From positions 1-45,464 of the forward strand of contig JAIOPR010000052.1 in assembly GCA_021413805.1 (NCBI GenBank): DNA of 45,464 bases, written 5' to 3'. Shown one piece after another: positions 6,685 through 41,947 of the stretch. The notes under the pieces are model-generated. The model was given only the letters and a program-made list of their open reading frames with translations, was not told where the DNA came from and did no database searches. The position numbers were made by a program, and so were the translations under genes. Within the stretch, counting starts at the first letter, position 1. Each line of letters opens with the position of its first letter. This DNA comes from Planctomycetota bacterium. Lineage in GTDB: Bacteria; Planctomycetota; MHYJ01; WSZJ01.

Positions 6685-6700
6685 TGGCACAGGTGTTGCG
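6685..6700 (+). promoter_or_regulatory. sigma54 -24/-12 promoter
   Basis: TGGCAC-AGGTG-TTGCG, about 40 bp upstream of ATG 6739. Confidence 0.8.
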
Positions 6701-6738
6701 CTCTTCCGGTGCGGAAGTCACCTCTAGAGGAGCGCCCC

Positions 6739-6921
6739 ATGTCCAAACCCCGAGCTTTCAGCCCCAACCAGCCCACCGGCGGCGCCATTTCCAGGAATTC
6801 CCGCGGTCAGGATGCCCGCGAGCAAGCCTCTGGCATGGCGCGCCCGCACGTCGAGCCGAGTCACCAGCACAACCACGACCGGAAGATGCAGGCGATGAGG
6901 CGCGTCAAAAAGACAAAGTGA
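6739..6921 (+). CDS. small basic hydrophilic hypothetical protein (60 aa)
   Basis: Strong RBS AGAGGAG, its own sigma54 promoter, and it fits the intergenic gap. Sequence MSKPRAFSPNQ...MRRVKKTK. Confidence 0.65.
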   Translation: MSKPRAFSPNQPTGGAISRNSRGQDAREQASGMARPHVEPSHQHNHDRKMQAMRRVKKTK

Positions 6922-6936
6922 GTTTCTGCAGGCGAC

Positions 6937-8907
6937 CTACTTCCGGAACCGGTACACCCGGATCGATCCCGCCCGCAGGATCGCCAGCCGCTTCATGTCC
7001 GTGGACACCGCCCATGCGTCGATGCGCGGGAACTCGACGGTCCTCGCCACCCGGAACGCCGGCGTGTACCAGAGCGTGACATAGGTTCCGTTGACGCCGA
7101 TCGCCGAAGTGGCATCCAGGAACTGGAAGAACTGCACCGGCACGTCCTCCGCCTTGTCGAGGTCCAGGTTCGACGGCGCGAGGCGCCTCGTATAGCCGTC
7201 CACCGTCCAGACGAGCCAGCGTTTCGCTGGGTCCAGCGCCACCTGCGCGTTCCGCCCCCTCCGCGTTTCTTCGAACACCCGCGTCCCTTTGGCGTCGTAC
7301 ACCAGTGTGCCCACTTTGCCTTCGTCGGGAAGCGACGCGGTCATGGCGAGGAACGAGGAATCCTCGGCCCAGGCCACACTCTGCAGATAACGGTTGGCGC
7401 GGGTCAGTGCGGTGCCGCTTCCACCGCGCCCTTTGAACACCGGCCGGAGCCAGACGCCGTCCTCGCCCTCGGTGGCGACGTGGAGGGCGCCGTTAGGGGA
7501 AGTGGCCTCGGGGAGCATGGCGTCGGAATCCTTTTTCGGGTCGAACTTGCGGACCTGCAGGCCCGTCGCGGCGTCCCAGATTTCGCTGTCGCGGGCGGAG
7601 GTCAGCGCGACCTGGGTGCGGCCTGGCCCGGGGAGACCGGTCGTCTGGAAGCCAAGGGCGCCGGGGGCGGCATCGCGGACGATCGTGGTCTTCCCCGTGG
7701 CGGCGTCGGCGAAGATGAAGTCGTTTCCCCAGGCGACGACGCGGGAGTCGTCTCGCGTCCAGGCGAGGTCCCGGATGCGCGGCGTGGCCGGGTAGCGGGC
7801 CGGCTGGTCGGGTGCGCGCCAGGTGACGACGGCGCCGTCGGGGTCGATTGCCATCAGTCGGCCTTCGCTCGGGTGGAACGCGGCCACGCAGGCGTCGAAC
7901 ACCCCGGGCGGCGCCGTGTACGTTTCCAGCGTGCCGTCCACTTCCCACACGCCCAGCCCGCCGGAAAAGCCGACCGCGACCTTGTGGCCGCCGCCATTGA
8001 CCGACACCGAGCGCGGTGGACCGCCCACAGACACCTCGACGCTGCCCCACCGGACTTTTCCGCTCGCGAACGCCACGACGGGCGTCCCGTCCGTCAGCGC
8101 CGAGAGCGCGCGGATCGCCTCACCCTTCGCCTCCCGTTTCGTCTCCTTCCCCGTCTCGATCGAGACCGTCACCAGCGCGCCGCTCTCTCCCCCGGCGATC
8201 ACCGATCCGTCCGACGTCGCGCAAAGGCTCGAGATCCGCTCCGCCTTCAGGTCCAGCCGGCTGCGGTCCTTCCCCGTCGTCGCCTCGGCGATCACCAGTT
8301 CCCCCGCGGCCGACAGGTACACGACCGATTCCCCGTCCTCGCTCCACGCCACTCCGCGTGACGGCGCCGGCGACAGCACCCGCTCCCGCTCGCCTTTCGC
8401 CAGGTTCCAGATCTCCACCCGGTCCGCCGCCACGATCAGCCTCTCCCCCGACGGCTCGAACTGCATCGATGTCACCGGCTTCGATCCCGTATCCAGCCAG
8501 GACTCCGAGCGAAGCGGCTTCAGCGTCCAGAGGAACACGCCTCCCCCGGGGGCCGCGGTCGCGAAGTGCGCATCGGCCGGACTCCCCGCAATGGCGCGGC
8601 AGATCCCGCCGGGAATCGCGATCTCCGTTTCCAGCACGAACTCCGTGTCCAGCAGCTTTCGCTCGTCGATCCGCATCAGAACCCACGCCACCCAGGCCTT
8701 CCTCAGCAACTCCGTCACTTTCGCCGTCCGCAGCGGCGCTTCGCTCGCCGCCCTCAACTCATACAGCCGGTCGGAAGCCTTCTCGCGCGTGGACAGGTCG
8801 TCGGCACCGAGGTCCTCGATAAGACGGTCGATCTCGCCGGGAGCAGGTTCCTGGGCGCGGGAGAAGAGCGGGAGACAGAGGACGAAGCCAAGGAGGAATC
8901 GGTTCAT
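6937..8907 (-). CDS. secreted WD40/beta-propeller protein with N-terminal HEAT-like helical segment
   Basis: Signal peptide MNRFLLGFVLCLPLFSRA, HEAT-like IDRLIEDLGADDLSTREKAS, and many WD-like blades (VTSMQFEPSGERL, VAWSEDG, AFHPSEGRL, LAWTRDDSR). Confidence 0.8.
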   Translation of the reverse strand: MNRFLLGFVLCLPLFSRAQEPAPGEIDRLIEDLGADDLSTREKASDRLYELRAASEAPLRTAKVTELLRKAWVAWVLMRIDERKLLDTEFVLETEIAIPGGICRAIAGSPADAHFATAAPGGGVFLWTLKPLRSESWLDTGSKPVTSMQFEPSGERLIVAADRVEIWNLAKGERERVLSPAPSRGVAWSEDGESVVYLSAAGELVIAEATTGKDRSRLDLKAERISSLCATSDGSVIAGGESGALVTVSIETGKETKREAKGEAIRALSALTDGTPVVAFASGKVRWGSVEVSVGGPPRSVSVNGGGHKVAVGFSGGLGVWEVDGTLETYTAPPGVFDACVAAFHPSEGRLMAIDPDGAVVTWRAPDQPARYPATPRIRDLAWTRDDSRVVAWGNDFIFADAATGKTTIVRDAAPGALGFQTTGLPGPGRTQVALTSARDSEIWDAATGLQVRKFDPKKDSDAMLPEATSPNGALHVATEGEDGVWLRPVFKGRGGSGTALTRANRYLQSVAWAEDSSFLAMTASLPDEGKVGTLVYDAKGTRVFEETRRGRNAQVALDPAKRWLVWTVDGYTRRLAPSNLDLDKAEDVPVQFFQFLDATSAIGVNGTYVTLWYTPAFRVARTVEFPRIDAWAVSTDMKRLAILRAGSIRVYRFRK

Positions 8908-9033
8908 ACCTGCAGTGTAACGGGAGGAGGGAGTGCGAAGCGAGTGGCGGGCTGGGTGTCAGGATTACCGGGCAGGAATGCTCCGGAAACCTGGCAAGTT
9001 CGCCCCTGAGGCCCGCCCCGCTTCGCTCAGGCC

Positions 9034-9049
9034 CGGCACGGGTCTTGCG
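9034..9049 (+). promoter_or_regulatory. sigma54 -24/-12 promoter
   Basis: CGGCAC-GGGTC-TTGCG upstream of the lipid kinase gene. Confidence 0.75.
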
Positions 9050-9145
9050 CCACCTCAAGGGCTTAGGCCGGGAATTGGCTGACAGGCAGATGCTTCGCCT
9101 GGAGTTCTTTGAGTCCGACACGCACTCCTTGCTCCCCCGTGATCC

Positions 9146-10060
9146 ATGATGCCTTCAACCCTGCCCGTGATCGTCAACATCGCTGCCGGCAAGGGCCACG
9201 GCACGGTGAGTCTCGACGCGATTCGCGAAGCGTTTCGCGCCGCGGGGAGGGATGTGGATATTCTGCCGGCCCGGGACATCGCCGAACTTGAGTCGCTCTC
9301 GCGGCGCGCCGCGGCGGAGGCTCATCCCACCATCGTCGCCGCGGGTGGCGACGGGACGCTGAGCGCGGTGGCCGCGGCCATCGTGGATTCCCCCAGCGCA
9401 CTCGGTGTGCTGCCGCTCGGGACCCTGAACCACTTCGCACGGGACCTTCGCATTCCGCTGGTGCTTGAAGAAGCCGCGCGCACCATCGCAGCAGGCAACG
9501 CGGTGATGGTGGACGTGGGAGAGGTCAATGGCCGGGTCTTCATCAATAACTCGAGCATCGGCCTCTATCCCACCGTGGTCCTGCACCGCAAAAACCAGCA
9601 GCGGCGCCTCGGGCGCAGCAAGTGGCAGGCGTTCTTCTGGGCGACCCTGACCGTGCTGGGGCGCCATCCGATGCTGGACGTCCGGTTGAGCCTGGACGAC
9701 GTCCCTGTCGCCCGTCGTACCCCGCTCGTCTTCGTCGGCAACAACGATTACATGATGGAAGGATTCCAGGTCGGCACGCGCGGTCGCTTCGACGCCGGGC
9801 GGCTGTGCGTTTACCTCACCCAGCGCCAGAGCCGCTGGGCGCTCATCCGGCTCGGACTGCACGCACTCTTCGGCACGATCAAGACGGCGAAACAATTCGA
9901 GTCGCTCACCGCCCGCACCGTCAGCATCTCGACGCGCCACGCCCGCCTCCCCGTCGCGACCGACGGCGAAGTCACCGTGATGGCGATGCCCCTCAACTAC
10001 CGGATCCGCCGCGGCGCCCTCAAGGTGATCGTGCCGCTTCCCGAAGCGCAGAACAACTGA
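9146..10060 (+). CDS. diacylglycerol/lipid kinase family protein (YegS/DAGK-like)
   Basis: Motifs VIVNIAAG, AAGGDGT, LPLGTLNHFARDL, FINNSSIG and TDGE. Confidence 0.9.
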   Translation: MMPSTLPVIVNIAAGKGHGTVSLDAIREAFRAAGRDVDILPARDIAELESLSRRAAAEAHPTIVAAGGDGTLSAVAAAIVDSPSALGVLPLGTLNHFARDLRIPLVLEEAARTIAAGNAVMVDVGEVNGRVFINNSSIGLYPTVVLHRKNQQRRLGRSKWQAFFWATLTVLGRHPMLDVRLSLDDVPVARRTPLVFVGNNDYMMEGFQVGTRGRFDAGRLCVYLTQRQSRWALIRLGLHALFGTIKTAKQFESLTARTVSISTRHARLPVATDGEVTVMAMPLNYRIRRGALKVIVPLPEAQNN

Positions 10061-10869
10061 TGCGCATCATCGCCCACCTGTCGGACCTGCATTTCGGGCG
10101 CGTGGACGAAGCGCTCCTCGAGCCGCTGCGGCTTCGAGTTCGGGAACTGGCGCCCCACCTCGTCGTGGTCTCGGGCGACCTCACGCAGCGCGCCCGGCCG
10201 TCGCAGTTCCTCGCCGCCCGGCGCTACCTCGATTCGCTTCCCCAACCGCAGGTCGTCGTCCCCGGCAACCACGACGTGCCGCTCTACAACGTCTTCCAGC
10301 GCTTCTTCCAGCCGTTCCACAAGTATCGGCGATTCATCAATGAGGACCTCGAACCCGGGTTCTGCGACGAAGAGATCGCGGTGGTCGGCATCAACACGTC
10401 GCGCTCCTTTACCTGGAAGGAAGGGAGCATCAATGCAGGCCAGGTCGCGAAGGTGCGCGCGAAGCTCTTCGGCGGCCCCGCGAATGTCGCGAAGATCATC
10501 GTGACGCACCACCCGTTCGACGTCCCCGAGGGGCGCGACGAGAACCAGCTCGTTGCCCGCGCGGAGATGGCGATGAAAGTTTTCGCCGAGTGCGGCGCCG
10601 ACATCCTGCTCTCCGGGCATCTGCACACGACCCACACGACGCATTCCGCCGAGCGCTACAGGATCCCCGGCCATTCCGCGCTGATCGTCCAGGCGGGAAG
10701 CGCCACTTCCACCCGGACCCGCGGCGAGTCGAACAGTTTCAACGTGCTTCACGTGACGCCCGGCGACATCCGCATCGATCGCTACACCTGGGAGCCCGGG
10801 AAGAACGAGTTTTCGCACGCCGGAAGCGAGGAATTCTCGCGCGCATCGGAGGGCTGGCATCGCAAATGA
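10060..10869 (+). CDS. calcineurin-like metallophosphoesterase (CpdA/Icc-like)
   Basis: Motifs HLSDLHFG, SGDLTQ, PGNHD, THHP and GHLH. TGATG overlap with the upstream kinase gene. Confidence 0.9.
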   Translation: MRIIAHLSDLHFGRVDEALLEPLRLRVRELAPHLVVVSGDLTQRARPSQFLAARRYLDSLPQPQVVVPGNHDVPLYNVFQRFFQPFHKYRRFINEDLEPGFCDEEIAVVGINTSRSFTWKEGSINAGQVAKVRAKLFGGPANVAKIIVTHHPFDVPEGRDENQLVARAEMAMKVFAECGADILLSGHLHTTHTTHSAERYRIPGHSALIVQAGSATSTRTRGESNSFNVLHVTPGDIRIDRYTWEPGKNEFSHAGSEEFSRASEGWHRK

Positions 10870-10970
10870 GGCGCCGGAAGAACTCGCCACGGAGGCAGTG
10901 AATCATGGGGACGAGTCCAACCTTCTTGTTCTGCCTCAATCGTCGCCCCTGGCGGTCCGCCTCGCTTCAG

Positions 10971-12908: not shown

Positions 12909-12982
12909 GGAAGAACCTCCGGGAAGTGGTGCGGCGTTGAAGCTAGCTCTCCCCACCGCAAGATCAACCCCCTCCTTTGACA

Positions 12983-13009
12983 TTCACACCATCTTCATCG
13001 CACCGCAAC
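12983..13009. promoter_or_regulatory. candidate Pho-box-like direct repeats at 11-bp spacing
   Basis: TTCAC (12983), TTCAT (12994) and degenerate GCAAC (13005), lying between divergent phoX and NUDIX-CHAD. Confidence 0.4.
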
Positions 13010-13537: not shown

Positions 13538-13543
13538 CCCCCC

Positions 13544-15476: not shown

Positions 15477-15480
15477 TGGT

Positions 15481-17059: not shown

Positions 17060-17878
17060 TCAGAACTGGATGGTGACCTCGGCAAAGAACCCCTGGACTG
17101 CCATCTCAATGTCGAAGTGGTCGTCCCCTCGCCGATCCTCAAGATCGATCCCGATGTAGCGGTACCCGGCGCCGATGGCGACGTTCTGGAAAAGGTAGAA
17201 CTTGGCCTGCACCGTTGCATCGAGGAAACCGGTGCGGATCTCGCGATACCGGATGTACATGGCCTCCGCGTCGGCCTCTAGGGAAATGCAGTTCAGGAAA
17301 CCGAAGCTGGCAGAGGCCCGCGCGACGGGAATGACAGTGTCGCTGTCAACGCGCTCCCGCGGACCGTTGGGGTCCTTCTTCACCGCGCCTTCGGCGTAGA
17401 GGTACCGGCCGCCGACACCGAGACCCAGCCGGAAACCGGCCTTCTTCGCTTCGCCGACATCGATGAGCATGAACTCCGCATCGACGCCACCACTCCGCAC
17501 CGTGACCTCCGAATCCACATCGTCGAACGTGTTGTACTTCGTCCCGTTGTACGTGAAGCTATCGGAGACGACTTGCGAAGATTCATATTCCTGCTGGAAG
17601 TAGCGGGCTTCGACACGCAGGCGCTTGAAGCGCACCTGGGCGAGCCCCTCGACGGCAATCTTGTCATTGCCCAGGTCGAGATCGTCATGCCAGTCGATCT
17701 TGCTTCCGTCGATATCCTCGGTGCCGACTTCCGCGCTGCCTTCGAGCCTCGCCAGCCAGGCGCGACCTTCAACCTTGATGAGGTAATCGTCGATCGACTT
17801 CCCGTCGAGGTCGAAGATTCCCCCGGCGAAGGCCGGGACAGCGCAGAGCGCGAGCGCCAGGCAAATCCTTGTGAGCAT
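17060..17878 (-). CDS. outer-membrane beta-barrel protein
   Basis: Signal peptide MLTRICLALALCAVPAFA, amphipathic strands, IGAGYRY motif and C-terminal Phe (GFFAEVTIQF). Confidence 0.8.
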   Translation of the reverse strand: MLTRICLALALCAVPAFAGGIFDLDGKSIDDYLIKVEGRAWLARLEGSAEVGTEDIDGSKIDWHDDLDLGNDKIAVEGLAQVRFKRLRVEARYFQQEYESSQVVSDSFTYNGTKYNTFDDVDSEVTVRSGGVDAEFMLIDVGEAKKAGFRLGLGVGGRYLYAEGAVKKDPNGPRERVDSDTVIPVARASASFGFLNCISLEADAEAMYIRYREIRTGFLDATVQAKFYLFQNVAIGAGYRYIGIDLEDRRGDDHFDIEMAVQGFFAEVTIQF

Positions 17879-17917
17879 AAGATGTCCTCTGTCTTCCCGA
17901 TGGTGAGAATGGGTCAC

Positions 17918-17945
17918 GCCGGCGCGGCAACTCGGCCGCGCCGGC
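17918..17945. other. perfect 11-bp GC stem-loop between the ElaB-like gene and the barrel gene
   Basis: GCCGGCGCGGC-AACTCG-GCCGCGCCGGC. No U-tract, so possibly an mRNA stability or attenuation hairpin. Confidence 0.5.
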
Positions 17946-17963
17946 CCAATTCAGACGTCGGTG

Positions 17964-18242
17964 TCAGCGGCGGCCCAGGAAGAACCCGAGCAGCGCACCC
18001 GCGACGGAAGCGGCGAGGACCGAGCGGAGAGGGTTACGCGACACGGCCTCTCCCGTCGTGGCGCGGATGGCCAGTACCTTGCGACGCCCAGCTTTCGCGG
18101 CGCGCTTGGAACCGGTTTTCAGGGTCGCCAGGTTGCGCTCGACAGCCTCTTCTACCCTGTCCTTGATCGAAGTCATTCCATCCGTCAGCGCGTGGGCCCT
18201 GGAAGCGTGGTTCGAACGATGTCCATTTGAGCTGTGTGCCAT
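17964..18242 (-). CDS. DUF883 / ElaB-YqjD family tail-anchored protein
   Basis: C-terminus VSRNPLRSVLAASVAGALLGFFLGRR. AAAGGAG RBS. Confidence 0.8.
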   Translation of the reverse strand: MAHSSNGHRSNHASRAHALTDGMTSIKDRVEEAVERNLATLKTGSKRAAKAGRRKVLAIRATTGEAVSRNPLRSVLAASVAGALLGFFLGRR

Positions 18243-18280: not shown

Positions 18281-18296
18281 AGCAAAGACAATGCCA
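18281..18296 (-). promoter_or_regulatory. sigma54 -24/-12 promoter
   Basis: Minus strand TGGCAT-TGTCT-TTGCT, about 40 bp upstream of the ElaB-like ATG. Confidence 0.8.
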
Positions 18297-18545
18297 CGGG
18301 ACTGACACGGGAGTTCCTCCTGGTGGCGCGGAACGAATCGGGTCTCCCGGGGCGCCGATCGGCGCGTTGAATCGGCAAAACTTGCCCAAAACGGAAATTC
18401 ATTCTCCCCGCGGGCGGTCCCGGGGAAGACCAGGAACGACCTTGGCGTCATTCGAAGGCAGGAATCCGATCCGGCGCGCAAGTCTCGTACACTTCCAGGC
18501 CTCGGCTCGCGATCCCCGAACCAGCGGGCCCAGCCGGCAGACGCG

Positions 18546-21798: not shown

Positions 21799-21814
21799 TG
21801 CAAGGCTTATGCCG
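21799..21814 (-). promoter_or_regulatory. sigma54 -24/-12 promoter (doxX-hss-oxidase)
   Basis: Minus strand CGGCAT-AAGCC-TTGCA. Confidence 0.8.
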
Positions 21815-21943
21815 GAGCTTGCAAGGCGCGGGGGACGGTCCTTCGCAAAGCAGGTCTCCGATTGCAGGTAGAACTTTCCGATTCGATGCCGAAATTCGGG
21901 GCACTTCGACTCCGCCCCCACGGTTCCACACGGGGACCGGCCC

Positions 21944-21959
21944 CGGCACGCGGCGTGCA
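21944..21959 (+). promoter_or_regulatory. sigma54 -24/-12 promoter (hydrolase gene)
   Basis: CGGCAC-GCGGC-GTGCA with exact GG-N10-GC spacing. Confidence 0.65.
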
Positions 21960-23577: not shown

Positions 23578-23593
23578 CGCAAAAGCCGTTCCC
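23578..23593 (-). promoter_or_regulatory. sigma54 -24/-12 promoter
   Basis: Minus strand GGGAAC-GGCTT-TTGCG, 33 bp upstream of ATG 23545. Confidence 0.65.
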
Positions 23594-23745
23594 GCGAGCG
23601 CTGGCAGCGCGTCGAGTGCGGCGACTCATGGAAGCGTGCGATGCGCAGTATTGGGTGACTCACACCCGGAAGCTCCCCCCGCGGTCGGTCACATTGACCG
23701 GGACTCCTCTGGGCGAACTCCGGTACAGGCACTTGTTACCGAGTC

Positions 23746-25185: not shown

Positions 25186-25535
25186 CACCTCCGTCAAACA
25201 CGCTCCATCGCCTGGCGGCGGAGAAGCGCTTCGCACCGCGTCGCGAACGCGGTGGACACGAGAATTTTACTTCGAGAGTTGAGGGGGTGGACTTTCGATT
25301 CGGCGCTCGGTCAGATTTTCCGGGAAACCCCTAGGGGTTCGACTCCCTTGATTCGGGGGGTTGCGCGCTTCGGACGCACCGCCTCGAAATCAACGTTGAT
25401 CCACTACTGGCAAGCGGGCTAGTGGAATAGAGGAGGAATTTTTCGGGGAGCGGACCCGATGGTTATTCCGGAGGGAGTGTCGTATTTGTTATCCGCGGTG
25501 AGACAAGTCCCCTGGACCTATGCCAAGGAGGGTTC

Positions 25536-26368: not shown

Positions 26369-26538
26369 CTAAGTAGCTCCCCGATAATTTCCTGCCATTC
26401 AGCCGCCGCGAATTTCGCCGGCTGGCAAGGAGGAGACCGGAATCGATGCGGGACGGAGCATCGATGAGGATCGACGACGACGCCAGACGGCGAAAGGCGC
26501 GCGGATAGGTGGCAGAAAATTATCGAGGAGCTACTTAG
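26369..26538. mobile_element. 170-bp MITE / internally deleted IS, probably IS630-Tc1-like (TA duplication)
   Basis: Terminal inverted repeats 26369-26397 and 26510-26538 match at 27 of 29 bases (CTAAGTAGCTCCYCGATAATTTYCTGCCA). The flanks reconstruct an empty CTAG site with a duplicated TA. Confidence 0.75.
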
Positions 26539-29002: not shown

Positions 29003-29437
29003 TCAGGCGCGCGAACAGTTGACCTTCAGCCAATAGCGCGCCAGCAGGCCCACGGTTGACACGAACTCCTCAAACTCAAGGGGCTTCACGACGTAACTGT
29101 TCACCCCCAGGTCATAACAGACCGCGCGATCGGCGGGCTCGCTCGATGAAGTCAGGATGACCACCGGCACCAGCTTCAACGCAGGGTCGCTCTTCATCCT
29201 CTTCAGCACCTCGATCCCGTCCACGAGCGGCAGCTTGATGTCCAGGATCACTACCTTTAGTTCGCCCGCGGTTGCCGGCTCGCCCTGCGGAAAAAGAAAG
29301 GTCAGTGCTTCCGCCCCGTTCTTCACCCTGTGCAGACCGCGGGACAGCTGGTTCTTTTCGAGCGCCCAGACCGTCATTTCCGCGTCGGCGGAGTTGTCCT
29401 CGACGAGGAGAACCTCCTCATGCTGGTTTGCCGGCAT
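29003..29437 (-). CDS. single-domain response regulator (Rcp1/CheY-like)
   Basis: Motifs LLVEDN, ILDIKLP, ILTSS and GVNSYVVKP. Confidence 0.92.
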   Translation of the reverse strand: MPANQHEEVLLVEDNSADAEMTVWALEKNQLSRGLHRVKNGAEALTFLFPQGEPATAGELKVVILDIKLPLVDGIEVLKRMKSDPALKLVPVVILTSSSEPADRAVCYDLGVNSYVVKPLEFEEFVSTVGLLARYWLKVNCSRA

Positions 29438-31076
29438 GGCCTTGACCCTCCGTTGGAAGTGAGAAATGGAAGGCGGCGCCCGCCCCGGTCTTGCCTTCCG
29501 CCCAGACGCGGCCGCCATGGCGCAGGATCACGCGCTGGACAAGCGCGAGCCCGACGCCCGTCCCTTCGAACTCTTCGCTGGAATGAAGCCTCTGGAACAC
29601 CCCGAACAGCTTGCTCGCAAACGTTTCGTCGAACCCGACGCCGTTGTCGCGGACAGTCCAGACGGTCTCGCCCTTGTCCTGCCGGGAAGTGAACTCGATG
29701 ACCGCGGACTCCCGCGGCCGCGTGTACTTCACGGCATTGCCGAGGAGATTTGCCAGCACCTGGCGGAGAAGCGCCTGGTCACCCCACGCAGGCGCCAGGT
29801 CCCCGATCCTGAAGTCGATCTTCCTGCCGGCATTCGCCACACGCAACTCGTCGCTGACGGCACACGCAAGGGTCGTCATGTCAACGCGGGAGCGGTTCAA
29901 CTCCGCCCGGCCCATCCGCGAGAAGGCCAGCAGGTCGTCGATCAGCTGCGCCATGCGGCGCGTATTCGTCACCACGACCTCCGTCAGCCGCTTCCCCTCC
30001 GCATCCAGGCTCGCAGAGTGCCGGTCCACGAGGCGGCGTGTAAAACCTTCAATGGCGCGAAGCGGCGCGCGCAGGTCGTGCGAGACGGAGTAGCTGAAGC
30101 TCTCCAGCTCCTTGTTCGCGGCCTCGAGCTGGGCGGTGCGTTCGCTCACGCGCCGCTCGAGCTCCACATTGAGCCGAAGCGCGTCGATCGCAGCCTTCTT
30201 TGCTTCGCTCACGTCCCGTGCCACGGCGTAGATCAGGCGTTCGCTCGGGTACGGCGTTCCCGTCCACGCGAGCCACACGTAGTCGCCGCCTGCGCGCCGG
30301 AAGCGGTTCTCGAAAGAAACCGCGCCGGGCTCCTTCTTGAGCAACTCAAGGGCCTCCCCCGTCGAGGGACGGTCGTCGGGGTGGACAAATTCCAGGAACG
30401 GGCGGCCGGTGACGCGAGCAGGAGTCCATCCCAGGGTTCCTTCCCACGGCGGGTTCCCCTCCCGGATATTGCCGTCAAAGCCTGCGATGCAGATCAAGTC
30501 AGGGGAGAGCGCGAAGAACCGGTTCCGCTGCTCGGTAACCTGCTCCAGCAGCCGGCGGTGCTGGCGGTCCTCCATGCGACGCAGTTGCTCCGCCTGGATC
30601 CTGACCTCCCTCATCGCCCGCGCCAGGTCCACGAACACCGAGACTTTCGAGTGGATCGCCTCCGCGGAGATCGGCTTCATGATGAAATCAGCCGCGCCCA
30701 CGGCGTACGCGTGTTGAAGACTATCGGGCGACGACTCCTCCGCAGTCAGGAAGATGATCGGCGTCGCACGCGACCGCTCCCGCTTCCGGATCATCTCCGC
30801 CGTTTCAAAACCGTTCATCCCCGGCAGGTGCACATCCAGCAGGATCGCCGAGAAGTCGCGGTCCAGGAGACACCGAAGCGCCTCCTCGCCCGACGAAGCC
30901 TTCACGAGCTGGACGTCCAGGTCGCCAAGGATCGCCTCCAGCACCATGAGGTCTTCCGCCCGGTCGTCAACCAGCAGGACGCTGATCCTGGAATCGCGCG
31001 GCGCCTTGGACGCGGGCTGGCGCGTGGCCTCTGACTTGGCCCTGCCCGGGACCGGATTGACACTCTTTCGCGGCAT
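29418..31076 (-). CDS. REC-PAS histidine kinase
   Basis: N-terminal receiver (LLVDD..LLDVHLP..IMKP), PAS (FVHPDD), H-box SYSVSHDLRAPLR and HATPase (DNGVGF, FEGTGVGLA). Confidence 0.93.
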   Translation of the reverse strand: MPRKSVNPVPGRAKSEATRQPASKAPRDSRISVLLVDDRAEDLMVLEAILGDLDVQLVKASSGEEALRCLLDRDFSAILLDVHLPGMNGFETAEMIRKRERSRATPIIFLTAEESSPDSLQHAYAVGAADFIMKPISAEAIHSKVSVFVDLARAMREVRIQAEQLRRMEDRQHRRLLEQVTEQRNRFFALSPDLICIAGFDGNIREGNPPWEGTLGWTPARVTGRPFLEFVHPDDRPSTGEALELLKKEPGAVSFENRFRRAGGDYVWLAWTGTPYPSERLIYAVARDVSEAKKAAIDALRLNVELERRVSERTAQLEAANKELESFSYSVSHDLRAPLRAIEGFTRRLVDRHSASLDAEGKRLTEVVVTNTRRMAQLIDDLLAFSRMGRAELNRSRVDMTTLACAVSDELRVANAGRKIDFRIGDLAPAWGDQALLRQVLANLLGNAVKYTRPRESAVIEFTSRQDKGETVWTVRDNGVGFDETFASKLFGVFQRLHSSEEFEGTGVGLALVQRVILRHGGRVWAEGKTGAGAAFHFSLPTEGQGHAGKPA

Positions 31077-34000
31077 CAGGCCTCCACCCTCTTGCTCTGG
31101 TACATCCAGACCCGGACCAGCGAAAGCAACTGCTCCGTGTCTACCGGTTTCGGGATGTAATCGGAAGCACCCGCTTCAATGCATCGCTCGCGGTCTCCCT
31201 TCATCGCTTTCGCCGTCAGCGCGATGATCGGAAGCGTCTTGAGGTCGTCCTGCATCCGGATCTGCCTCATCGCCTCGTAGCCGTCCATTTCCGGCATCAT
31301 GATGTCCATCAGGACGACGTCCACTCCCCGTCCCCGGCTCTTGAGAAGCTCCACCGCCTCTTTTCCATTCTGCACAAAGGAGGTCTTCAACCCGTGCCGT
31401 TCGAGCACCGACGTGAGGGCAAAGATGTTACGGATGTCGTCGTCCACGATCAGGACGCGGCGATCCGTGATCAGCGGGTCCATCTGGAGCGTGTCGAGGA
31501 GCATCCGCCGCTTATGCTCGGGGAGCGTCGCGGTGACCCGGTGAAGGAACAGGGCGGTTTCGTTGAAAAGCCGCTCCGGGCTGTTCGCGTCCTTCACGAT
31601 GATCGCGCCGGCGTGTTTGCGGAGCTGGGACTCCTCTTTCCGCGAGAGGGACTTCCCTGTGTAGACGACGATCGGGAGGTGCCCCAGGCCGGGATTCTCG
31701 CGGATCTTCCCGAGCAGTTCGAACCCGGACATGTCGGGGAGCCGCAGGTCGAGGACCATGCAGTCGAAAGGCTTCGACTCGAGGGCCTGGAGCGCATCGC
31801 CCCCGGTGCCAACGGCCGTGATTTCCACATCCTTGCCGCCGAGCATCTCGGAGAGCCCGCGCCGCTGGGCTTCGTCGTCTTCCAGGACGAGGAGGTGCTT
31901 CACCGGCTTGTCGATGAACTTCCGGAGCCGCGTGAGCGCCTCCCCGATCGCCTCGCGTGACACGGGCTTCTGCAGGAATGAGAACGCCCCGAGCTTGAGG
32001 CCCCGCTCGCGGTTGTCATCCGCCGTGACGATCTGGACCGGGATGTGGCGCGTCTCCGGGTCGTGTTTGAGGCAGTCGAGGAGCGCCCAGCCGTCCATGT
32101 CCGGCATGCGCATGTCCATCATGAGCGCATCGGGCTTGAATTTCCTGGCCATCTGCAGGCCGATCTCGCCTCCCGTCGCAATCAGGCCCTTGAATCCGTT
32201 TTCATGCGCCAGGTCGAGAAGGACATGGGAGAACGTGTAGTCGTCCTCGACGATCAACACAACCTTGTCCCCCGGCTGCGTCGCTCCACGGTCGTCGTGC
32301 ACTTCCCGCAGCAACGAGTTCACCGGGGACGAATCCACCGCTTCCGTCGCACGGGGAGTGACAGGCCGCCCGGCCACGGTGGTGTATTCCTGCAGGGTGT
32401 GCGATCCATCCCTCGACGCGCGGGACTTGACCGGGGCGAAGTCGAGGGGAAGGTAGAGGGTAAAGGTACTTCCTTCCCGCACCTTGCTCGTGAGCCCGAT
32501 CTCGCCGCCGAGCATCTTGGCGATTTCGCGGCTGATCGAGAGGCCGAGGCCGGTGCCTCCGTATTTGCGGCTCGTCGTCATGTCGGCCTGCTGGAAAGGC
32601 TCGAAGATGATCTGCTGCTTGTCCTCGGGGATGCCGATCCCGGTGTCGGTGACCGAGAAGGCGATGACCGTCTCCGCGCTGTTGAGAATCGGGTGGTCCT
32701 GGCTCCAGCCTGACTGCGCCACCGTCATCCGCAGAGAAACACCGCCCTTCTGCGTGAACTTGAAAGCGTTCGACAGGAGGTTCCTCAACACCTGCTGCAG
32801 CCGCTTCGAATCCGTCTGCATCGCGGAAGGAAGCGCCGGGTCCAGCTGCATCGCAAAGTCGAGCTTCTTGTTCTGCGCGATCGGCCGGAAGCTGGGCTCG
32901 TTGTCAGCCAGGATGTCCTTGAACGACAAGGTTGCGATTTCGAGCGCCATCGTCCCGGACTCGATTTTCGACAGGTCCAGGATGTCGTTGATGAGGCTGA
33001 GGAGGTCGGAGCCCGACCCGTGAATCGCGCGCCCGAACTCGACCTGCTTCGGCGTCAGGTTTCCTTCCGGGTTCTCGTAGAGCATCTTCGCCAGGATCAG
33101 CAGTGAATTCAGCGGCGTCCGGAGCTCGTGCGACATGTTCGCGAGGAATTCCGACTTGTACTTCGACGTCAGCGCGAGCTGCTCGGCCTTTTCCTCGATT
33201 TCCGCGTTCGTCTGCTGGAGTTCCTGCGTCAGGGCCTGCGACTTCTTGAGAAGCGCCTCAGTGTTCATCGTCGCGGCGATCGTGTTGAGCACGATGCCGA
33301 TCGATTCGGTGAGCTGGTCGAGGAAGTGAAGGTGCGTCTCGTTGAAGCTCTTGAAGGACCCTAGCTCGATGACGGCGCGGACCTGGGACTCGAAGAGCAC
33401 GGGGAGGACGACGATGTTGGACGGGGTCGCGTTCCCGAGGCCGGAAGAGACCCGGACGTAGTTGTCGGGGACGCGGTCGAGCAGGATCCGTTTCTTTTCG
33501 ATCGCGCACTGGCCGACGAGCCCGTCGCCGACGTTGAAGCGGGTGGGCAGGTCTTCGCGGGCGGAGTAGCCGTATCCGGAGACGAGGTTCAGCGCGGAAC
33601 CGTCGTTGGATTCATCGAGGGCATAGAAGACGGAGTGCTGGGCGCCGACGAGGGGCGCGAGTTCCGAGAGGATCTGGCGGGAAACGGACTCGAGGTCGCG
33701 CTGGCCCTGGAGCATGCGGGTGAACTTGGCGAGGTTGGTCTTGAGCCAGTCCTGCTCCGCGTTCTTCTGCGTGGTTTCGCGGAGGTTGCGGATCATTTCG
33801 TTCAGGTTGACCTTGAGGTTTTCGACTTCGCCGGCGGCCTCGACCGTGATGGACCGGGTCAGGTCGCCCTTCGTGACCGCGGTGGCGACGTCGGCGATCG
33901 CGCGCACCTGGGTGGTGAGGTTGGCCGCGAGTTGGTTTACGTTGTCGGTGAGGTCGCGCCAGATGCCGGTGGCGCCGGGAACGCGGGCCTGGCCGCCGAG

Positions 34001-36442
34001 GCGTCCCTCGACGCCGACTTCGCGAGCCACCGTCGTCACCTGGTCTGCGAACGTTGCCAGCGTGTCGATCATGTCGTTGATGGTGTCGGCCAGCGTCGCG
34101 ATTTCGCCGCGCGCCTCGAGGGACAGCTTGCGCTGAAGCTCGCCCTTGGCGACGGCAGTCACGACGACGGCGATTCGGCGCACCTGGGTCGTGAGGTTGG
34201 ACGCCATGAAATTCACGCTGTCGGTCAGGTCCTTCCAGACGCCGGCCACGCCCTTCACCTGCGCCTGTCCGCCCAGCTTCCCTTCCGTGCCGACCTCGCG
34301 CGCCACGCGCGTCACTTCGCCGGCGAACGCGTTCAGCTGGTCCACCATCGTGTTGATCGTGTCTTTCAGCTGCAGGATTTCGCCTTCGACCTTGACCGTG
34401 ATCTTGCGGGAGAGGTCGCCTCGCGCCACGGCGGTCGTGACGTCCGCGATGTTGCGCACCTGGGACGTCAGGTTCGACGCCATGAAATTCACGTTGTCGG
34501 TCAGGTCCTTCCAGACGCCGCCGACGCCGCGCACCTGCGCCTGGCCTCCCAGTTTTCCTTCCGTGCCGACTTCGCGCGCCACGCGCGTCACTTCACTCGC
34601 GAACGCGTTCAGGCGGTCCACCATCGTGTTGATCGTGTCCTTCAACTGCAGGATTTCGCCCTTCACCTCGACCGTGATCTTGCGGGAAAGGTCGCCGCGA
34701 GCGACGGCGGTCGTCACGTCGGCGATGTTGCGCACCTGCGACGTCAGGTTCGATGCCATCGAGTTCACGTTGTCCGTCAGGTCCTTCCACACGCCGGCCA
34801 CGCCTTTCACTTCTGCCTGGCCTCCCAGCTTTCCTTCCGTGCCGACTTCGCGCGCCACGCGCGTCACTTCGCCCGCAAATGCGTTGAGCTGGTCCACCAT
34901 CGTGTTGATCGTGTCCTTCAGCCGCAGGATTTCGCCCTTCACCTCGACCGTGATCTTCTTGGACAGGTCACCCTTTGCCACGGCCGTCGTCACGTCGGCG
35001 ATGTTGCGCACCTGCGAGGTGAGGTTGCCGGCCATCGAGTTCACGTTGTCCGTCAGGTCTTTCCAGACGCCGGCGACGCCTTTCACCTGCGCCTGGCCGC
35101 CCAGCTTCCCGTCCGTGCCGACTTCGCGCGCCACACGGGTCACCTCGCCTGCGAACCCGTTCAGCTGGTCCACCATCGTGTTGACCGTGTTCTTGAGCTG
35201 CAGGATTTCGCCCTTCACCGCGACCGTGATCTTCTTCGAGAGGTCGCCCTTGGCCACCGCCGTCGTGACTTCCGCGATATTGCGCACCTGGCTGGTCAAG
35301 TTCACGGCCATGAAATTGACGTTGTCGGTCAGGTCCTTCCAGACGCCGGCCACACCCCGCACCTGCGCCTGCCCGCCGAGCTTTCCTTCCGTGCCGACTT
35401 CGCGCGCCACGCGCGTCACTTCGCCCGCGAACGCGTTCAGCTGGTCAACGAGCGTGTTGATCGTGTCCTTCAGCTGAAGAATTTCTCCTTCGCCTTTCAC
35501 CGTGATTTTGCGCGACAAGTCGCCCTTGGCTACGGCCGTCGTCACGTCGGCAATGTTGCGCACCTGGCTCGTCAGGTTGCCGGCCATGAAGTTCACGTTG
35601 TCCGTCAGGTCCTTCCACACGCCGGCCACGCCTTTCACCTGCGCCTGGCCGCCCAGTTTTCCTTCCGTGCCGACTTCGCGCGCCACGCGCGTCACTTCAC
35701 CCGCGAACCCGTTCAACTGGTCCACCATCGTGTTGATCGTGTTCTTCAGCTGCAGAATTTCGCCCTTCACCTCGACCGTGATCTTCTTCGACAGGTCGCC
35801 CTTCGCCACGGCCGTCGTCACGTCCGCGATGTTTCGCACCTGCGATGTCAAATTCCCGGCCATCGAGTTCACGTTATCCGTCAGGTCCTTCCAGACGCCG
35901 GCCACGCCTTCCACCTGCGCCTGCCCGCCCAGCTTTCCCTCGGTGCCTACTTCGCGCGCGACACGCGTCACTTCCGAAGCGAATGACCCCAGCTGGGACA
36001 CCATCGTGTTCACCGTGCGCGCCATCTGCAGGAACGACCCCCGCACCGGCTTGCCCTCGATCTGCGTCGGCATTTTCTGCGAGAGGTTCCCGTTCGCGAC
36101 CGACCCGATCACGCGCGCCACCTCGTTCGTCGGCCGCACCAGGTCGCCGATCAGTGAGTTCGCGGCGTTCACTGTCTTCAGCCAGGATCCGGAAGAGCCG
36201 CGAAGCGCGGCGCGTTCCGAGAGCTTTCCTTCCTTACCGACCACCCGGCTCACCCGCTGGAACTCCTCCGCCATCCGTTCGTTCTGCCGGATGATCGCGT
36301 TGAGGGTCCGGGCGATTTCACGGCCGGGCCCTCCGCGAGGAACCCGGCAGCGCGTCGCAAAATTGCCCCTTTTGACGGACCGGAGGGTCAAGAGGAGATC
36401 CGGGACGTTGAGAGGATCTCGAACCTTGGTGGCCTGTCTCAC
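31076..36442 (-). CDS. poly-HAMP hybrid histidine kinase (OsaA / fungal group III NIK1-like): HAMP array-GAF-HisKA-HATPase-3xREC
   Basis: 92-aa [11 protein letters not shown] repeats, H-box [20 protein letters not shown] and three receivers. GTG start with TAAGGAG RBS. Confidence 0.95.
33780..36250 (-). repeat. intragenic tandem repeat, 276-bp unit, about 9 copies (7 well conserved)
   Basis: The VWKDLTD-coding motif recurs every 276 bp (e.g. 34229, 34505, 34781, 35057, 35333, 35609, 35885). Outer boundaries are approximate. Confidence 0.9.
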
Positions 36443-36845
36443 AGGAAACTCCTTAGGGAGTGCGGGGAGGCGGGAGGGCGGACATGATCGAAGCCGGGGT
36501 GGATGACGGGGCTCCGTGGCCGGAGGCCGGGTGTGCGATTCCGCTGTGAAGCGGAGGCACGACTCGTTCTGCTGCCGACGGGGGTCGGTCGAGCAATGGG
36601 GCGCCGCCAGGAAGGGGGCGCCGGGGTTCCCGGGTTCGCAAGGAGTATAACCGACGCACTGGAATTGTGTCCGCGGGGGCGCTCAAGAAAATCAGGGGGT
36701 TTTGAAGACGACATCGGGAGGACCAGTTCGTAGCTCCCCGCGGCCGTCCTTCCCCGATCAGCCGGACAAGAATGGTTTCCAGGATGGGTGTCTCCATTCG
36801 CGATCCGGGGATTCCGCCGGAAATTCGGCGGCGTGAAGCAGCGAA

Positions 36846-36861
36846 AGCAAGGCGCGTGCCG
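36846..36861 (-). promoter_or_regulatory. sigma54 -24/-12 promoter
   Basis: Minus strand CGGCAC-GCGCC-TTGCT, about 400 bp upstream of the poly-HAMP kinase start. Confidence 0.75.
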
Positions 36862-36973
36862 CCGAGTTTGCGGGCTACGCAGAGCCTGTTCCCGGGCAAT
36901 GGCTCTCGAATCCCGGGAATAGTTGCCGATGTTTGTGTTTCGTTCCCCCCGGGCGGCAGGCGCATGGCACACC

Positions 36974-37405
36974 TCAGCACCCGAGCAGGATCGGCGGTTT
37001 TCCAAATCTCTTCCGCAGCCTGTTGATGCGTCCCTGGACGCTCGGGCGCTTGAGCAGCTTCCGCTGCAACTTTCGCTTGGACGGGAAATCCGTGATTGAG
37101 AACCCGATCAGGAAGAGAAGCGTGCCCGGAAAAGGGACGCCCGGGATCGCGAGGATGAGTCCGACGATGGCCAGGAGGAATCCACAGATGTTCCTGGTCC
37201 AATAAGTGATTTTTCCCCGCACGCCGACCCGCGGCGTGGGCGCATGCCGCTTCAGCGAAAGATAATCCGCGGGCATGAGGACGATGAAGAGGGCGCACAG
37301 GGCGAAGCTGCCCATCACCGTGAGCACGGCCACGAGCAGAACGGAAGCGAACCCTTCCGCTGAGAGGCCGACGTACCCTGCCATCGAATTGAAGATCTGT
37401 TTCAT
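36974..37405 (-). CDS. PGPGW-family small membrane protein
   Basis: TM segments, IPGVPFPGTLLFLIG..DFPSKRKL and INRLRKRFGKPP. Confidence 0.75.
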   Translation of the reverse strand: MKQIFNSMAGYVGLSAEGFASVLLVAVLTVMGSFALCALFIVLMPADYLSLKRHAPTPRVGVRGKITYWTRNICGFLLAIVGLILAIPGVPFPGTLLFLIGFSITDFPSKRKLQRKLLKRPSVQGRINRLRKRFGKPPILLGC

Positions 37406-37467
37406 GGCTATGCCTCAACCTGAGGTTTCGATCCCATGGTGCTTTCACTCGAGGGCAATCATTCGTT

Positions 37468-37483
37468 TGCAACGACCATGCCG
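37468..37483 (-). promoter_or_regulatory. sigma54 -24/-12 promoter
   Basis: Minus strand CGGCAT-GGTCG-TTGCA. Confidence 0.75.
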
Positions 37484-37602
37484 CTTCCGGGCGAACGGAA
37501 GCCGGATTCATCCTCGCGGGCATCGGCGGTAGCGCATACCCGAGGCGGTAGCAATGACCGGCGGGGGTGCGGCGCAATTCGATCGGCGGCCTGTATGCGG
37601 GC

Positions 37603-37618
37603 GGGCACTTGTTTTGCT
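37603..37618 (+). promoter_or_regulatory. sigma54 -24/-12 promoter
   Basis: GGGCAC-TTGTT-TTGCT upstream of the DUF1328 gene. Confidence 0.75.
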
Positions 37619-37725
37619 TCCTTCACACGCCGGCACTGCTGATTCCGCACGCGCGGCGCGGAAAAGGTTTCCAACCCTCCCCGTTGAAGCGCTCAAGTCA
37701 CGGGGACAAATAAACGGAGGTTCCC

Positions 37726-37911
37726 ATGCTGTACTGGTCCCTGGTTTTCTTCATCGTCGCCATCGTTGCGGCCGTCTTCGGATTCGGAGGCATCGCCGCT
37801 GGTGCCGCGGGAATCGCGAAGATCCTGTTCTTCTTCTTCGTGGTCATCTTCCTCGTGTCATTGATCTGGGGCCTCCTCAACGGCCCGCGGTCCCGTCCCC
37901 CGGCTGTTTAG
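37726..37911 (+). CDS. DUF1328 (YtjA/UPF0391) small membrane protein
   Basis: [44 protein letters not shown]. Confidence 0.95.
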
Positions 37912-37972
37912 TATCGCGATTCGCGCGCAGCTACGTGACTTGGGCCGGGTTTGCGATGAGTCAGGTATGGTC

Positions 37973-38007
37973 CCGGGGGGGTGCAGCCGAAGGTCGCACC
38001 CCCCCGG
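37973..38007. terminator. 12-bp stem-loop between convergent genes, putative terminator
   Basis: CCGGGGGGGTGC-N11-GCACCCCCCCGG. No clear U-tract. Confidence 0.55.
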
Positions 38008-38026
38008 AATCACGCGTTTCGAACCA

Positions 38027-38920
38027 CTACGCTCCCCTGCCCGCGACCGTTTCACTTCCGCGGCCTCGTTCTCCCCGAACGACCAGCACGGGGGACTTCA
38101 ATTCGCGAAGCACCTTCTCCGCGACGCTGCCCGCCACCGGCCTCGACACGCCCTTTCGCCCCTGCGTCGCCATCGCGACCAGGTCGGCGTCGTGGGTGCG
38201 ACTGGCGTCGAGAATTTCGGAAGCGGGGTCGCCGAGGCGAAACAGGGGATCGACGGCGATGTGGTCGTGGGAGAGCGCATCGACCGCGACCCGCACAAGG
38301 GGGTCCCCCTTGCAGCTTGAACGCCGTCCGGCTGGCTCGACGACGCCGAGCACAATCACGCTGGCGCCGAAGGCGCCCGCCAGGGACCGGACGTGGGGCA
38401 GGGCCGCGAGCGAATTCCCGGTGCCGAGGACCGGCATCAGGATCCTCCGGATCGGGACCTCGTGGGCCGAGGTCCGGGCGGCACCAGCGGCGACCTGCTC
38501 GAAAGATCTCAGGATGAGAACGGGAATCTCGCTCTTCCGCAGCACCTGCTCCGTCACGCTCCCGAAGACGCAATGTGAGCGGCCGGTGCGGCCATGCGTG
38601 GCCATGGCAATGAGGGTCGCGCCCTCGTCCCGGGCCACTTCCAGGATTCCACCGGCTTCCCGGCCCACGTGCACGACCCCAAGCACCCTCACGCTGTTCT
38701 TTCGAAGCTCGCGCGCCAGCGCCGAGAGGTAGCGCTCCGCTTCGGCTTTTGTGTCCCGAAGGCTGAAAGGAGCGCTGCCAGGGCGAGGGTGCAATGGGAC
38801 CGGGATGGCGCGCATGAGAATCAGGGTGGCGCCCCGGGTGCGGATCAGGTGGACAACCGGGCCGAGAATGGCCTCGGCTATTTCGGAGCCGTCAAGCGGT
38901 ACCAGAATGCGACGGAGCAT
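38027..38920 (-). CDS. tandem-domain universal stress protein
   Basis: RRILVPLDGS, LIAMATHGRTG..FGSVTEQVLR, and a second domain LVAMATQGRKG..GSVAEKVLR. Confidence 0.93.
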   Translation of the reverse strand: MLRRILVPLDGSEIAEAILGPVVHLIRTRGATLILMRAIPVPLHPRPGSAPFSLRDTKAEAERYLSALARELRKNSVRVLGVVHVGREAGGILEVARDEGATLIAMATHGRTGRSHCVFGSVTEQVLRKSEIPVLILRSFEQVAAGAARTSAHEVPIRRILMPVLGTGNSLAALPHVRSLAGAFGASVIVLGVVEPAGRRSSCKGDPLVRVAVDALSHDHIAVDPLFRLGDPASEILDASRTHDADLVAMATQGRKGVSRPVAGSVAEKVLRELKSPVLVVRGERGRGSETVAGRGA

Positions 38921-38959
38921 GGGGTGGGCCTCAAGGGTGGCCGATCGCAGCTTCTGATC

Positions 38960-38975
38960 TGCATACCGTGTGCCC
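38960..38975 (-). promoter_or_regulatory. sigma54 -24/-12 promoter (usp)
   Basis: Minus strand GGGCAC-ACGGT-ATGCA, 40 bp upstream of ATG 38920. Confidence 0.65.
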
Positions 38976-39125
38976 CTTGAAAAGCATCCACGGACCGGCC
39001 GGAATACGTCATCGCGGGGAGGAGCACGCCGGGAGCCCGGCCAATTCGCCCGCATCCTCCTGCAACAATTCCCGCCGCGCGTACTTCTTGCAGGCCCCAC
39101 CGGATCGCAGCCCGACGGAACCCTC

Positions 39126-39141
39126 GGGCATAGGTGTTGCA
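39126..39141 (+). promoter_or_regulatory. sigma54 -24/-12 promoter (PAS kinase operon)
   Basis: GGGCAT-AGGTG-TTGCA. Confidence 0.75.
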
Positions 39142-41942: not shown

Positions 41943-41947
41943 ACACC

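Follow-up and report, generated by a model that had tools for sequence, protein, structure and literature searches.

Do the genes that other bacteria place under a general-stress sigma factor answer to sigma-54 in the Planctomycetota? This question is raised by a contig of 45,464 bp (JAIOPR010000052.1; C22 in our numbering), on which eleven candidate sigma-54 promoters lie between positions 6685 and 39141. The first-pass annotation of this DNA read them as a locally encoded general-stress regulon. The entire contig, called the window below, belongs to a Planctomycetota metagenome-assembled genome (MAG) of 4.57 Mb (377 contigs, 66% G+C, approximately 82% complete), and the only sequencing run found to contain this stretch is a freshwater metagenome. 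A search for RNA runs with positions 36400–39400 gave none, and the single RNA run from this sample shares next to no sequence words with the query. The promoters probably form an enhancer-dependent sigma-54 regulon of this freshwater organism, with one NtrC-type activator and feedback on the sensor operons. The original observation is confirmed and strengthened, and the terms "general stress response" and "locally encoded" exceed the evidence.

Genes were called with a codon-usage model trained on this genome, and start codons were corrected by hand. A consensus scan in which GG and GC were obligatory gave 42 intergenic and 23 coding matches with at most one mismatch; intergenic DNA is 10.3% of the genome. 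The sigma-54 matrix (28 columns) was trained on 38 intergenic sites with at most one mismatch, all outside the window, and a site of at least 12 bits on this outside-trained matrix is called strong. Genomes of the same genus are called congeners, and regions syntenic with the window were found in G002, G004 and G005.

Promoter cores, upstream motif and candidate activator

The eleven GG-N10-GC sites were all present at the positions and on the strands given in the first-pass annotation. The refined gene calls agreed that every core is intergenic and points at the adjacent gene. The start codon lies 32–107 nucleotides (nt) downstream of the core, with the exception of 36846 (403 nt). Compared with TGGCAC-N5-TTGCW, there is one mismatch at 6685, 18281, 36846 and 37603, two at 9034, 21799, 21944, 37468, 38960 and 39126, and three at 23578. 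The three divergent pairs (21799/21944, 37468/37603 and 38960/39126) were also found as described.

The loose pattern (up to three mismatches) was not enriched in the window (128 seen vs 137.9 expected). The tight core GGCAY-N6-TGCW occurred 8 times against 1.02 expected, and none of 100 shuffles reached 8. The matrix called nine of the eleven sites strong, leaving 21944 at 9.6 bits and 23578 at 7.4 bits. The genome contains 128 strong matches, of which 81 are intergenic by crude gene calls. The window accounts for 1.0% of the bases (lambda 1.19) and holds nine of these matches (Poisson P = 4.7e-6), all of them sites picked at first reading. It tops all contigs by count, the next having four, and its site density is barely above that of contig C8 (three matches in 16 kb). 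Chance matches as the source of the eleven sites were ruled out by the enrichment of the tight core and of matrix matches. Spreading by a repeat or mobile element was also ruled out, as the flanks of the eleven sites are unrelated.

Conservation upstream of orthologs, a check proposed with the first-pass annotation, gave a similar picture. Ten promoters were testable in congeners and eight or nine were kept: 6685, 18281, 21944, 23578, 36846, 37468, 37603, 38960 (a weak variant) and 39126. The cores are islands of conservation in the aligned spacers. Outside the genus, 4 of 12 loci with universal stress protein (USP) homologs had a site of at least 10 bits directly upstream of the USP gene or USP tandem. 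The independent matrix, the enrichment and the conservation in congeners support the assignment of these sites to the sigma-54 type.

The eleven promoters correspond to eight non-redundant upstream regions for motif work. An expectation-maximisation (EM) search of these regions (one site per sequence, both strands) returned a 16-mer, CGG-N10-CCG with an A/T-rich centre, at a log-likelihood ratio (LLR) of 54.0. Four mononucleotide shuffles gave 41.3–42.2, and 12 control sets of eight upstream regions from other sigma-54 promoters gave a mean of 46.9 (standard deviation (sd) 2.3, maximum 50.5). Leave-one-out matrices regained the original site in six of the eight regions, with scores of 8.9–15.4 bits. 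Random intergenic pieces of 192 nt scored 4.7 bits on average (sd 3.0), and their 95th percentile (10.0) was exceeded by seven of the eight regions. The mean motif score of 79 other sigma-54 upstream regions was 5.8 bits. Enrichment of k-mers yielded just GGGCGAAC (4 of 8 regions, P 5.7e-6 uncorrected for 1260 k-mers), which overlaps partially with the EM motif. Palindrome enumeration (5-nt arms, 0–14 nt spacers) gave no half-site common to more than two of the eight regions.

The motif lies approximately 40–135 nt upstream of the −24 element before the eleven promoters; it is weak at 6685 and doubtful at 9034. Each divergent pair has one site between its two promoters, 42–74 nt from both cores. 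In all four spacers aligned with G002 and G004, the motif is inside blocks conserved between the species. At the syntenic loci of G004 and G002, eight of nine strong sigma-54 sites are preceded by a motif of 10.2–17.0 bits, 60–88 nt upstream of the −24 element. The one left, before a 285-aa paralog, scores 3.9. Six sigma-54 sites of the unrelated congener loci L059–L061 reached at most 8.7 bits, and one site at L023, outside the syntenic genes, scored 12.0 bits. These data suggest that the eleven promoters share CGG-N10-CCG as a candidate enhancer site, which is the new element of this study. A shared and conserved upstream motif points to one enhancer-binding protein, most likely the NtrC-type regulator encoded at 23746–25197.

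This gene (minus strand) encodes a receiver, an AAA+ sigma-54 interaction domain and a Fis-type helix-turn-helix, annotated by Pfam as Response_reg, Sigma54_activat (E 2.5e-67) and HTH_8. The Walker A motif (GESGTGKE), the Walker B motif (LLLDEIGE), the GSFTGA loop, the receiver Asp and VLVDPQLPDGDG are intact. The protein scored below every NCBIfam equivalog cut-off, so that it is not NtrC, ZraR, PspF or another such protein by name. Its orthologs in G002 and G004 have 83% identity and the same neighbours. Two copies of the motif (23686–23701 and 23726–23741; together 23686..23741) start 5 nt past the activator stop codon, and both belong to blocks that are conserved with G004 and G002. A motif-like palindrome (25307..25323, 12.2 bits), absent from the training set, precedes the activator gene. 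G004 and G002 have it as well, yet the entire spacer is conserved there. Autoregulation of the activator through this palindrome is possible by its position. The spacer itself (25198–25535, up to a divergent 90-aa gene) is almost wholly conserved in G002 and G004, far above the other spacers.

At L024, L025, L040 and L046, the gene of a more distant activator homolog immediately follows those of a REC-PAS kinase and a receiver, and a sigma-54 site comes next. At L025 and L040, the kinase, receiver and activator genes are contiguous. A HisKA_3 kinase and a NarL/LuxR-type regulator (26535–28480) adjoin the activator in G000, G002, G004 and G005. The NarL/LuxR-type regulator is 98.6% identical to that of G004, and the adjoining kinase just 74%. 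We found no link between this LuxR-type pair and the sigma-54 promoters.

We propose the following circuit. A multi-kinase relay, composed of a HAMP/GAF hybrid kinase, a REC-PAS kinase and a stand-alone receiver, would phosphorylate the regulator. The phosphorylated regulator would bind the CGG-N10-CCG sites, oligomerise and use ATP to open the sigma-54 holoenzyme at the promoters. The predicted output would include small membrane proteins of the stress type (DUF883/ElaB-like, DUF1328/YtjA, a 143-aa membrane protein, DoxX and a beta-barrel protein), together with a tandem USP, an alpha/beta hydrolase and a lipid-kinase/phosphoesterase pair. Two sensor-kinase operons would also belong to the output, one of which ends in a diguanylate cyclase. 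The circuit may thus have positive feedback on its sensors and a cyclic di-GMP output.

Individual promoters and their genes

The strongest core of the window is at 36846..36861 (minus strand, 21.1 bits), with equivalents of 20.8 bits (G004) and 20.5 bits (G002). The upstream motif (36914..36929, minus; TCGGCAACTATTCCCG) is kept in both genomes at 66–67 nt. This promoter precedes a kinase operon (29003..36442, minus), which by Pfam encodes a 1788-aa HAMP-array/GAF hybrid kinase, a REC-PAS-HisKA-HATPase kinase and a single receiver; neighbouring gene boundaries in it overlap or abut. The gap between the promoter and the HAMP kinase gene (36443–36845) is unusual among the eleven in its length, and its last 230 nt before the kinase start are 83–84% identical to G002 and G004.

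The second kinase operon (39225..42832, plus) encodes, according to Pfam, a triple-PAS histidine kinase, a single receiver and a receiver-GGDEF diguanylate cyclase. It lies behind the core at 39126..39141 (plus, 12.7 bits), whose equivalents score 16.6 bits in G004 and 15.1 bits in G002. The divergent core at 38960..38975 (minus, 13.7 bits) precedes a tandem USP gene (38027–38920; Usp E 1.5e-46). The aligned site in G002 is a GTGCA variant at −12 (8.2 bits). G004 conserves the motif between the two promoters (39037..39052, plus; CCGGCCAATTCGCCCG). The corresponding block of G002 survives as a variant, with the best-scoring matrix site close by.

The pair 37468/37603 faces two small membrane-type genes. 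The core at 37468..37483 (minus, 12.4 bits) stands before the gene of a 143-aa membrane protein (36974–37405), and its equivalents score 18.7 (G004), 13.4 (G002) and 14.2 (G005) bits. The core at 37603..37618 (plus, 14.1 bits; 17.8 bits in G004 and 16.2 bits in G002) stands before the DUF1328/YtjA gene (37726–37911; DUF1328 E 7.7e-13). The motif between them (37546..37561, minus) is inside a 40-nt block conserved in three species, and a weaker second copy is found at 37527–37542. The leader of the DUF1328 gene (37619–37725) also has blocks conserved in three species and gave no Rfam match; at gathering thresholds, no known RNA family was found in the window.

The core at 18281..18296 (minus, 18.7 bits) precedes an operon (17060..18242, minus) for a 92-aa DUF883/ElaB-like tail-anchored protein (17964–18242) and a 285-aa putative outer-membrane beta-barrel protein (17060–17917). 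Its upstream motif (18373..18388, minus; TGGGCAAGTTTTGCCG) scored 15.4 bits in the leave-one-out test. In G005, a 20.3-bit site is found before the orthologous operon (contig C65), with a degenerate copy of the motif at the identical distance. The C-terminus of the 92-aa protein resembles DUF883_C (PF19029, a glycine-zipper anchor) at E 0.0052 and 16.8 bits, below the cut-off of 27. Four of five aligned homologs match this family (best E 3.6e-6), and a word-indexed homolog search with the 92-aa protein returned itself alone. The 285-aa protein was similar to TIGR04219 (E 6.5e-9), below the cut-off of that model. Stress-type cargo, as claimed at first reading, is present in the form of DUF1328, the tandem USP and the DUF883/ElaB-like protein, the last being sub-threshold in the window copy and matched by its homologs. 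The two kinase operons assigned to sigma-54 promoters are also where they were said to be, behind 36846 and 39126.

The remaining divergent pair has a stronger and a weaker member. The core at 21799..21814 (minus, 14.5 bits) precedes the gene of a DoxX/SURF4 membrane protein (21286–21747). The weaker core at 21944..21959 (plus, 9.6 bits) has GTGC at −12 and precedes an alpha/beta hydrolase gene (22027–22866). The same variant, GGCACGC-N3-GTGC, is also found before two loci of hydrolase homologs in G005. The motif between the two promoters (21866..21881, minus; TCGGAAAGTTCTACCT) scored 11.9 bits in the leave-one-out test.

The core at 23578..23593 (minus, 7.4 bits) is non-canonical, with GGAAC at −24, and stands before the gene of a 201-aa Ala/Gly-rich protein (22940–23545). 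The variant GGAAC-N5-TTTGC is kept in G004 and G002 amid diverged spacer DNA, and is not found in G005. A search of the ESM Atlas with the 201-aa protein returned unnamed clusters only (score 0.93).

Two promoters lie apart at the left of the window. The core at 6685..6700 (plus, 16.1 bits) precedes the gene of a 60-aa hydrophilic protein of no family (6739..6921, plus). Its equivalent is a 19.7-bit site at the sole homolog locus found (G005, contig C63; one of seven congeners). The candidate enhancer motif at 6628..6643 (plus; TGGCCCTGTTTTACCG) is the EM site, and at 8.9 bits in the leave-one-out test it ranks last among the eight regions. The core at 9034..9049 (plus, 12.9 bits) precedes a lipid kinase/metallophosphoesterase operon (9146..10869, plus), in which Pfam identified a DAGK_cat/YegS_C kinase (9146–10060) and a calcineurin-like phosphoesterase (10060–10869). 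Its possible motif (8991..9006, plus) is uncertain: it is just 28 nt from the core, and the leave-one-out matrix chose another site.

Extent of the probable regulon and competing explanations

To delimit the regulon, the 128 sigma-54 matches were ranked by their best upstream motif score. The window sites ranked first, which is circular, as they are the training set. The top-ranked sites outside the window were C10:7607, C188:3173, C8:13273, C8:14979, C152:4705, C8:14298, C129:5656 and others, with about seven candidates. Several of the genes behind a site with the motif are homologous to genes of the congener island, namely those on C188 (a pair of 132-aa genes), C8 (Gly-zipper/YflT-like) and C129 (DUF883-like). 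Two 132-aa genes separate the 36846-type promoter from the HAMP kinase in G002 and G004; in this genome, they are on C188 behind their own 22.1-bit promoter. Congeners also have a 176-aa Gly-zipper/DUF1269/YflT-like gene (sub-threshold in Pfam) between the 39126-type promoter and the PAS kinase. Genome-wide, approximately 20 promoters carry a sigma-54 site and the motif. The description as locally encoded fits in part; the regulon is not purely local, judging by the motif-bearing candidates on C188, C8, C10, C152 and C129.

The 60 genes downstream of the best sites outside the window included 29 with a Pfam family (E <= 1e-5). The families include GroES, GroEL, ClpB, a flagellar rod protein, a pilin-like protein, secretin/STN proteins, three FHA proteins, PFOR, YceI, kinases and one activator. 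Sites of 20.9, 18.4 and 20.5 bits stand directly before GroES (C265:3935, minus), GroEL (C310:1502, minus) and ClpB (C18:25361, plus), and all three lack CGG-N10-CCG. The absence of the motif at the chaperone promoters suggests a separate sigma-54 heat-shock circuit. A 17.6-bit motif copy also lies before two tandem USP genes at C152:2663–4634, with no strong sigma-54 site between. A second USP-rich island (C214:6000–17200) has its own activator and four sigma-54 sites and is conserved in G001, G003 and G004. None of these four sites is among the 30 best upstream-motif scores.

The extent of the regulon bears on the claim of a general stress response, which the first-pass annotation had drawn from the cargo. 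According to this claim, sigma-54 and one activator would replace an RpoS/SigB/EcfG-type switch and be induced by many unrelated stresses. The DUF883/ElaB-like, DUF1328 and USP cargo does resemble known general-stress cargo; ElaB of E. coli, for example, is regulated by RpoS and OxyR (PMC6389858). Congeners add the Gly-zipper/DUF1269/YflT-like genes at such promoters, and two multi-domain sensors could integrate several signals. However, a general stress response is expected to comprise of the order of a hundred genes and the main protective functions. The motif occurs at only about 20 promoters, and the chaperone genes lie outside the set, which implies one or more further stress circuits under sigma-54. 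NmpR, the closest analog studied so far, responds to a single signal, low oxygen (PMC11841059). We therefore regard the general-stress claim as unlikely and the cargo as insufficient to carry it. The regulon may instead belong to a programme for a specific stress or for dormancy.

Another possibility is that the window is a sigma-54-rich island served by several activators, the shared motif being partly an effect of composition or the site of a paralog of the kind encoded on C8. The genome has 22 Sigma54_activat matches, 18 of them at E <= 1.6e-24. The motif is low in information, and the sites at 9034 and 6685 are weak. On the other hand, the motif cross-validates, its position is conserved between species, and it is largely absent upstream of the other sigma-54 promoters. 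We consider a mixed island of this kind quite improbable.

Several observations nevertheless weigh against a regulon under the local activator. The EM score was just about 3 sd above that of sets of real sigma-54 upstream regions, and the rest of the genome has approximately 17 motif matches of at least 9 bits per 45 kb. G005 keeps the promoters with weaker motif copies (6.3–6.8 bits; 11.4 at its USP). The kinase behind 9034 had no homolog in seven congeners (E <= 1e-20), in addition to the doubtful motif site there, and the single DoxX homolog examined (G006, contig C70) had no site within 350 nt upstream. The C8 paralog of the activator (51% identity) is located beside three sigma-54 promoters with a similar motif. 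As the sites neighbouring the two paralogs are alike, the paralogs are indistinguishable by sequence. The first-pass suggestion that the local activator drives the regulon stands in part: the shared motif fits one activator and the local NtrC-type protein is a reasonable candidate, while the C8 paralog also neighbours similar promoters.

A last point against the regulon concerns rpoN, whose presence the first-pass annotation had made a condition. The gene is present on C96 (Sigma54_DBD, 155.5 bits), and in this assembly it reads frameshifted approximately 30 codons before its end (C96 ~4786–4790; L001 ~1883), so that the RpoN box, which makes up the final 30 positions of the profile, is read in a different frame. 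No contig of the source run spans the frameshift: one stops 7 bases before it and another starts 5 bases after it. A single low-coverage indel is a common assembly error in MAGs. The Sigma54_DBD match is divided between two frames, the second of which contains the RpoN box, and might indicate that sigma-54 is inactive and the promoters are relics. This reading is hardly credible, given about a hundred well-formed promoters, at least 18 retained activator genes and an intact Sigma54_DBD in all five congeners tested.

Comparison with known systems

Little is known of stress protection in the Planctomycetota, to which no classical general-stress sigma system has been assigned. The window offers a concrete circuit, with eleven promoter cores, a candidate enhancer motif, a candidate activator and a likely sensor relay, and it is conserved in at least two congeners. 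In our reading of the DNA, it is a well-supported in-silico regulon of a familiar type with an unusual, general-stress-like gene set, and it involves no new mechanism.

We also speculate on a broader role. In this lineage, sigma-54 and one NtrC-type activator acting on CGG-N10-CCG enhancers, several of them bidirectional, might govern a general stress or dormancy programme, with no exchange of sigma-70-family factors. Such a programme would switch on ribosome- or membrane-associated proteins of the hibernation type (DUF883/ElaB-like, DUF1328 and USP) and amplify two sensor kinases and a diguanylate cyclase, making the decision bistable. We hold this to be rather doubtful. Should the narrower circuit of the window prove correct, it would mean that genes under RpoS, SigB or EcfG in other phyla can be wired to an ATP-dependent sigma-54 activator, and a statistical prediction of the literature, sigma-54 sites at Planctomycetia USP genes, would be extended to a defined regulon.

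That prediction comes from an in-silico survey of sigma-54 regulons in several phyla (PMC12316311), so that sigma-54 control of USP genes in the Planctomycetia is already predicted in print. For this class, the sites predicted there with a position-specific scoring matrix are enriched at COG0589 (UspA), chaperones and proteases, histidine kinases and NtrC-type regulators. The same pattern is seen in this genome, with USP, chaperones, kinases and an activator behind sigma-54 sites. The survey does not appear to give an enhancer motif, a specific activator or a DUF883/DUF1328/Gly-zipper island; its supplements may list such genes. An rpoN-type promoter has also been suggested at a common-stress gene of Rhodopirellula baltica (PMC2754498). 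Our literature search found no paper linking DUF1328 to RpoN. By titles and abstracts, it also returned no such regulon for sigma-54 in combination with general stress response and USP.

The RpoS, SigB and EcfG regulons overlap with the window in their types of cargo (ElaB/YqjD DUF883, YtjA DUF1328 and USP). They rely on the exchange or release of a sigma factor of the sigma-70 family, and each has roughly a hundred genes or more. The sigma factor here would be constant, control would be exerted by an ATP-dependent activator, and the gene set is much smaller. The DosR/DevR dormancy regulon of Mycobacterium tuberculosis has many USP genes clustered with a two-component regulator and uses sigma-70-type promoters. 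Its likeness to the window lies in the NarL/LuxR-type regulator and HisKA_3 kinase that adjoin the activator.

Among sigma-54 systems, ZraSR-zraP and PspF-psp of enterobacteria are envelope-stress modules that control one or two operons. In the zraP/zraSR case, two divergent sigma-54 promoters flank the activator sites, and expression of the sensor operon is autoregulated. Compared with both modules, there are eleven local promoters here and several elsewhere, and the cargo families are different.

The closest studied analog is the NmpRSTU system and NmpR regulon of Myxococcus xanthus, as described in PMC11841059. In both systems, an NtrC-like activator is fed by a relay of a first kinase, a REC-HisKA-CA hybrid kinase and a receiver-only protein, here by domain architecture. 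Both also have sigma-54 promoters with dyad enhancer sites, USP among the targets, and the promoter of the first kinase's own operon as a candidate target. The binding sites differ, being GCGCA-N5-TGCGC for NmpR and CGG-N10-CCG here. The first kinase of NmpRSTU senses oxygen through a protoglobin/heme domain, whereas its counterpart here has a HAMP array and GAF, and the sensors of the window as a whole are of the HAMP, GAF and PAS types. The NmpR cargo consists of oxygen-use genes (cbb3 oxidase, P-type ATPase and CBS protein), in contrast to the small membrane proteins of the stress type encoded here (PMC11841059).

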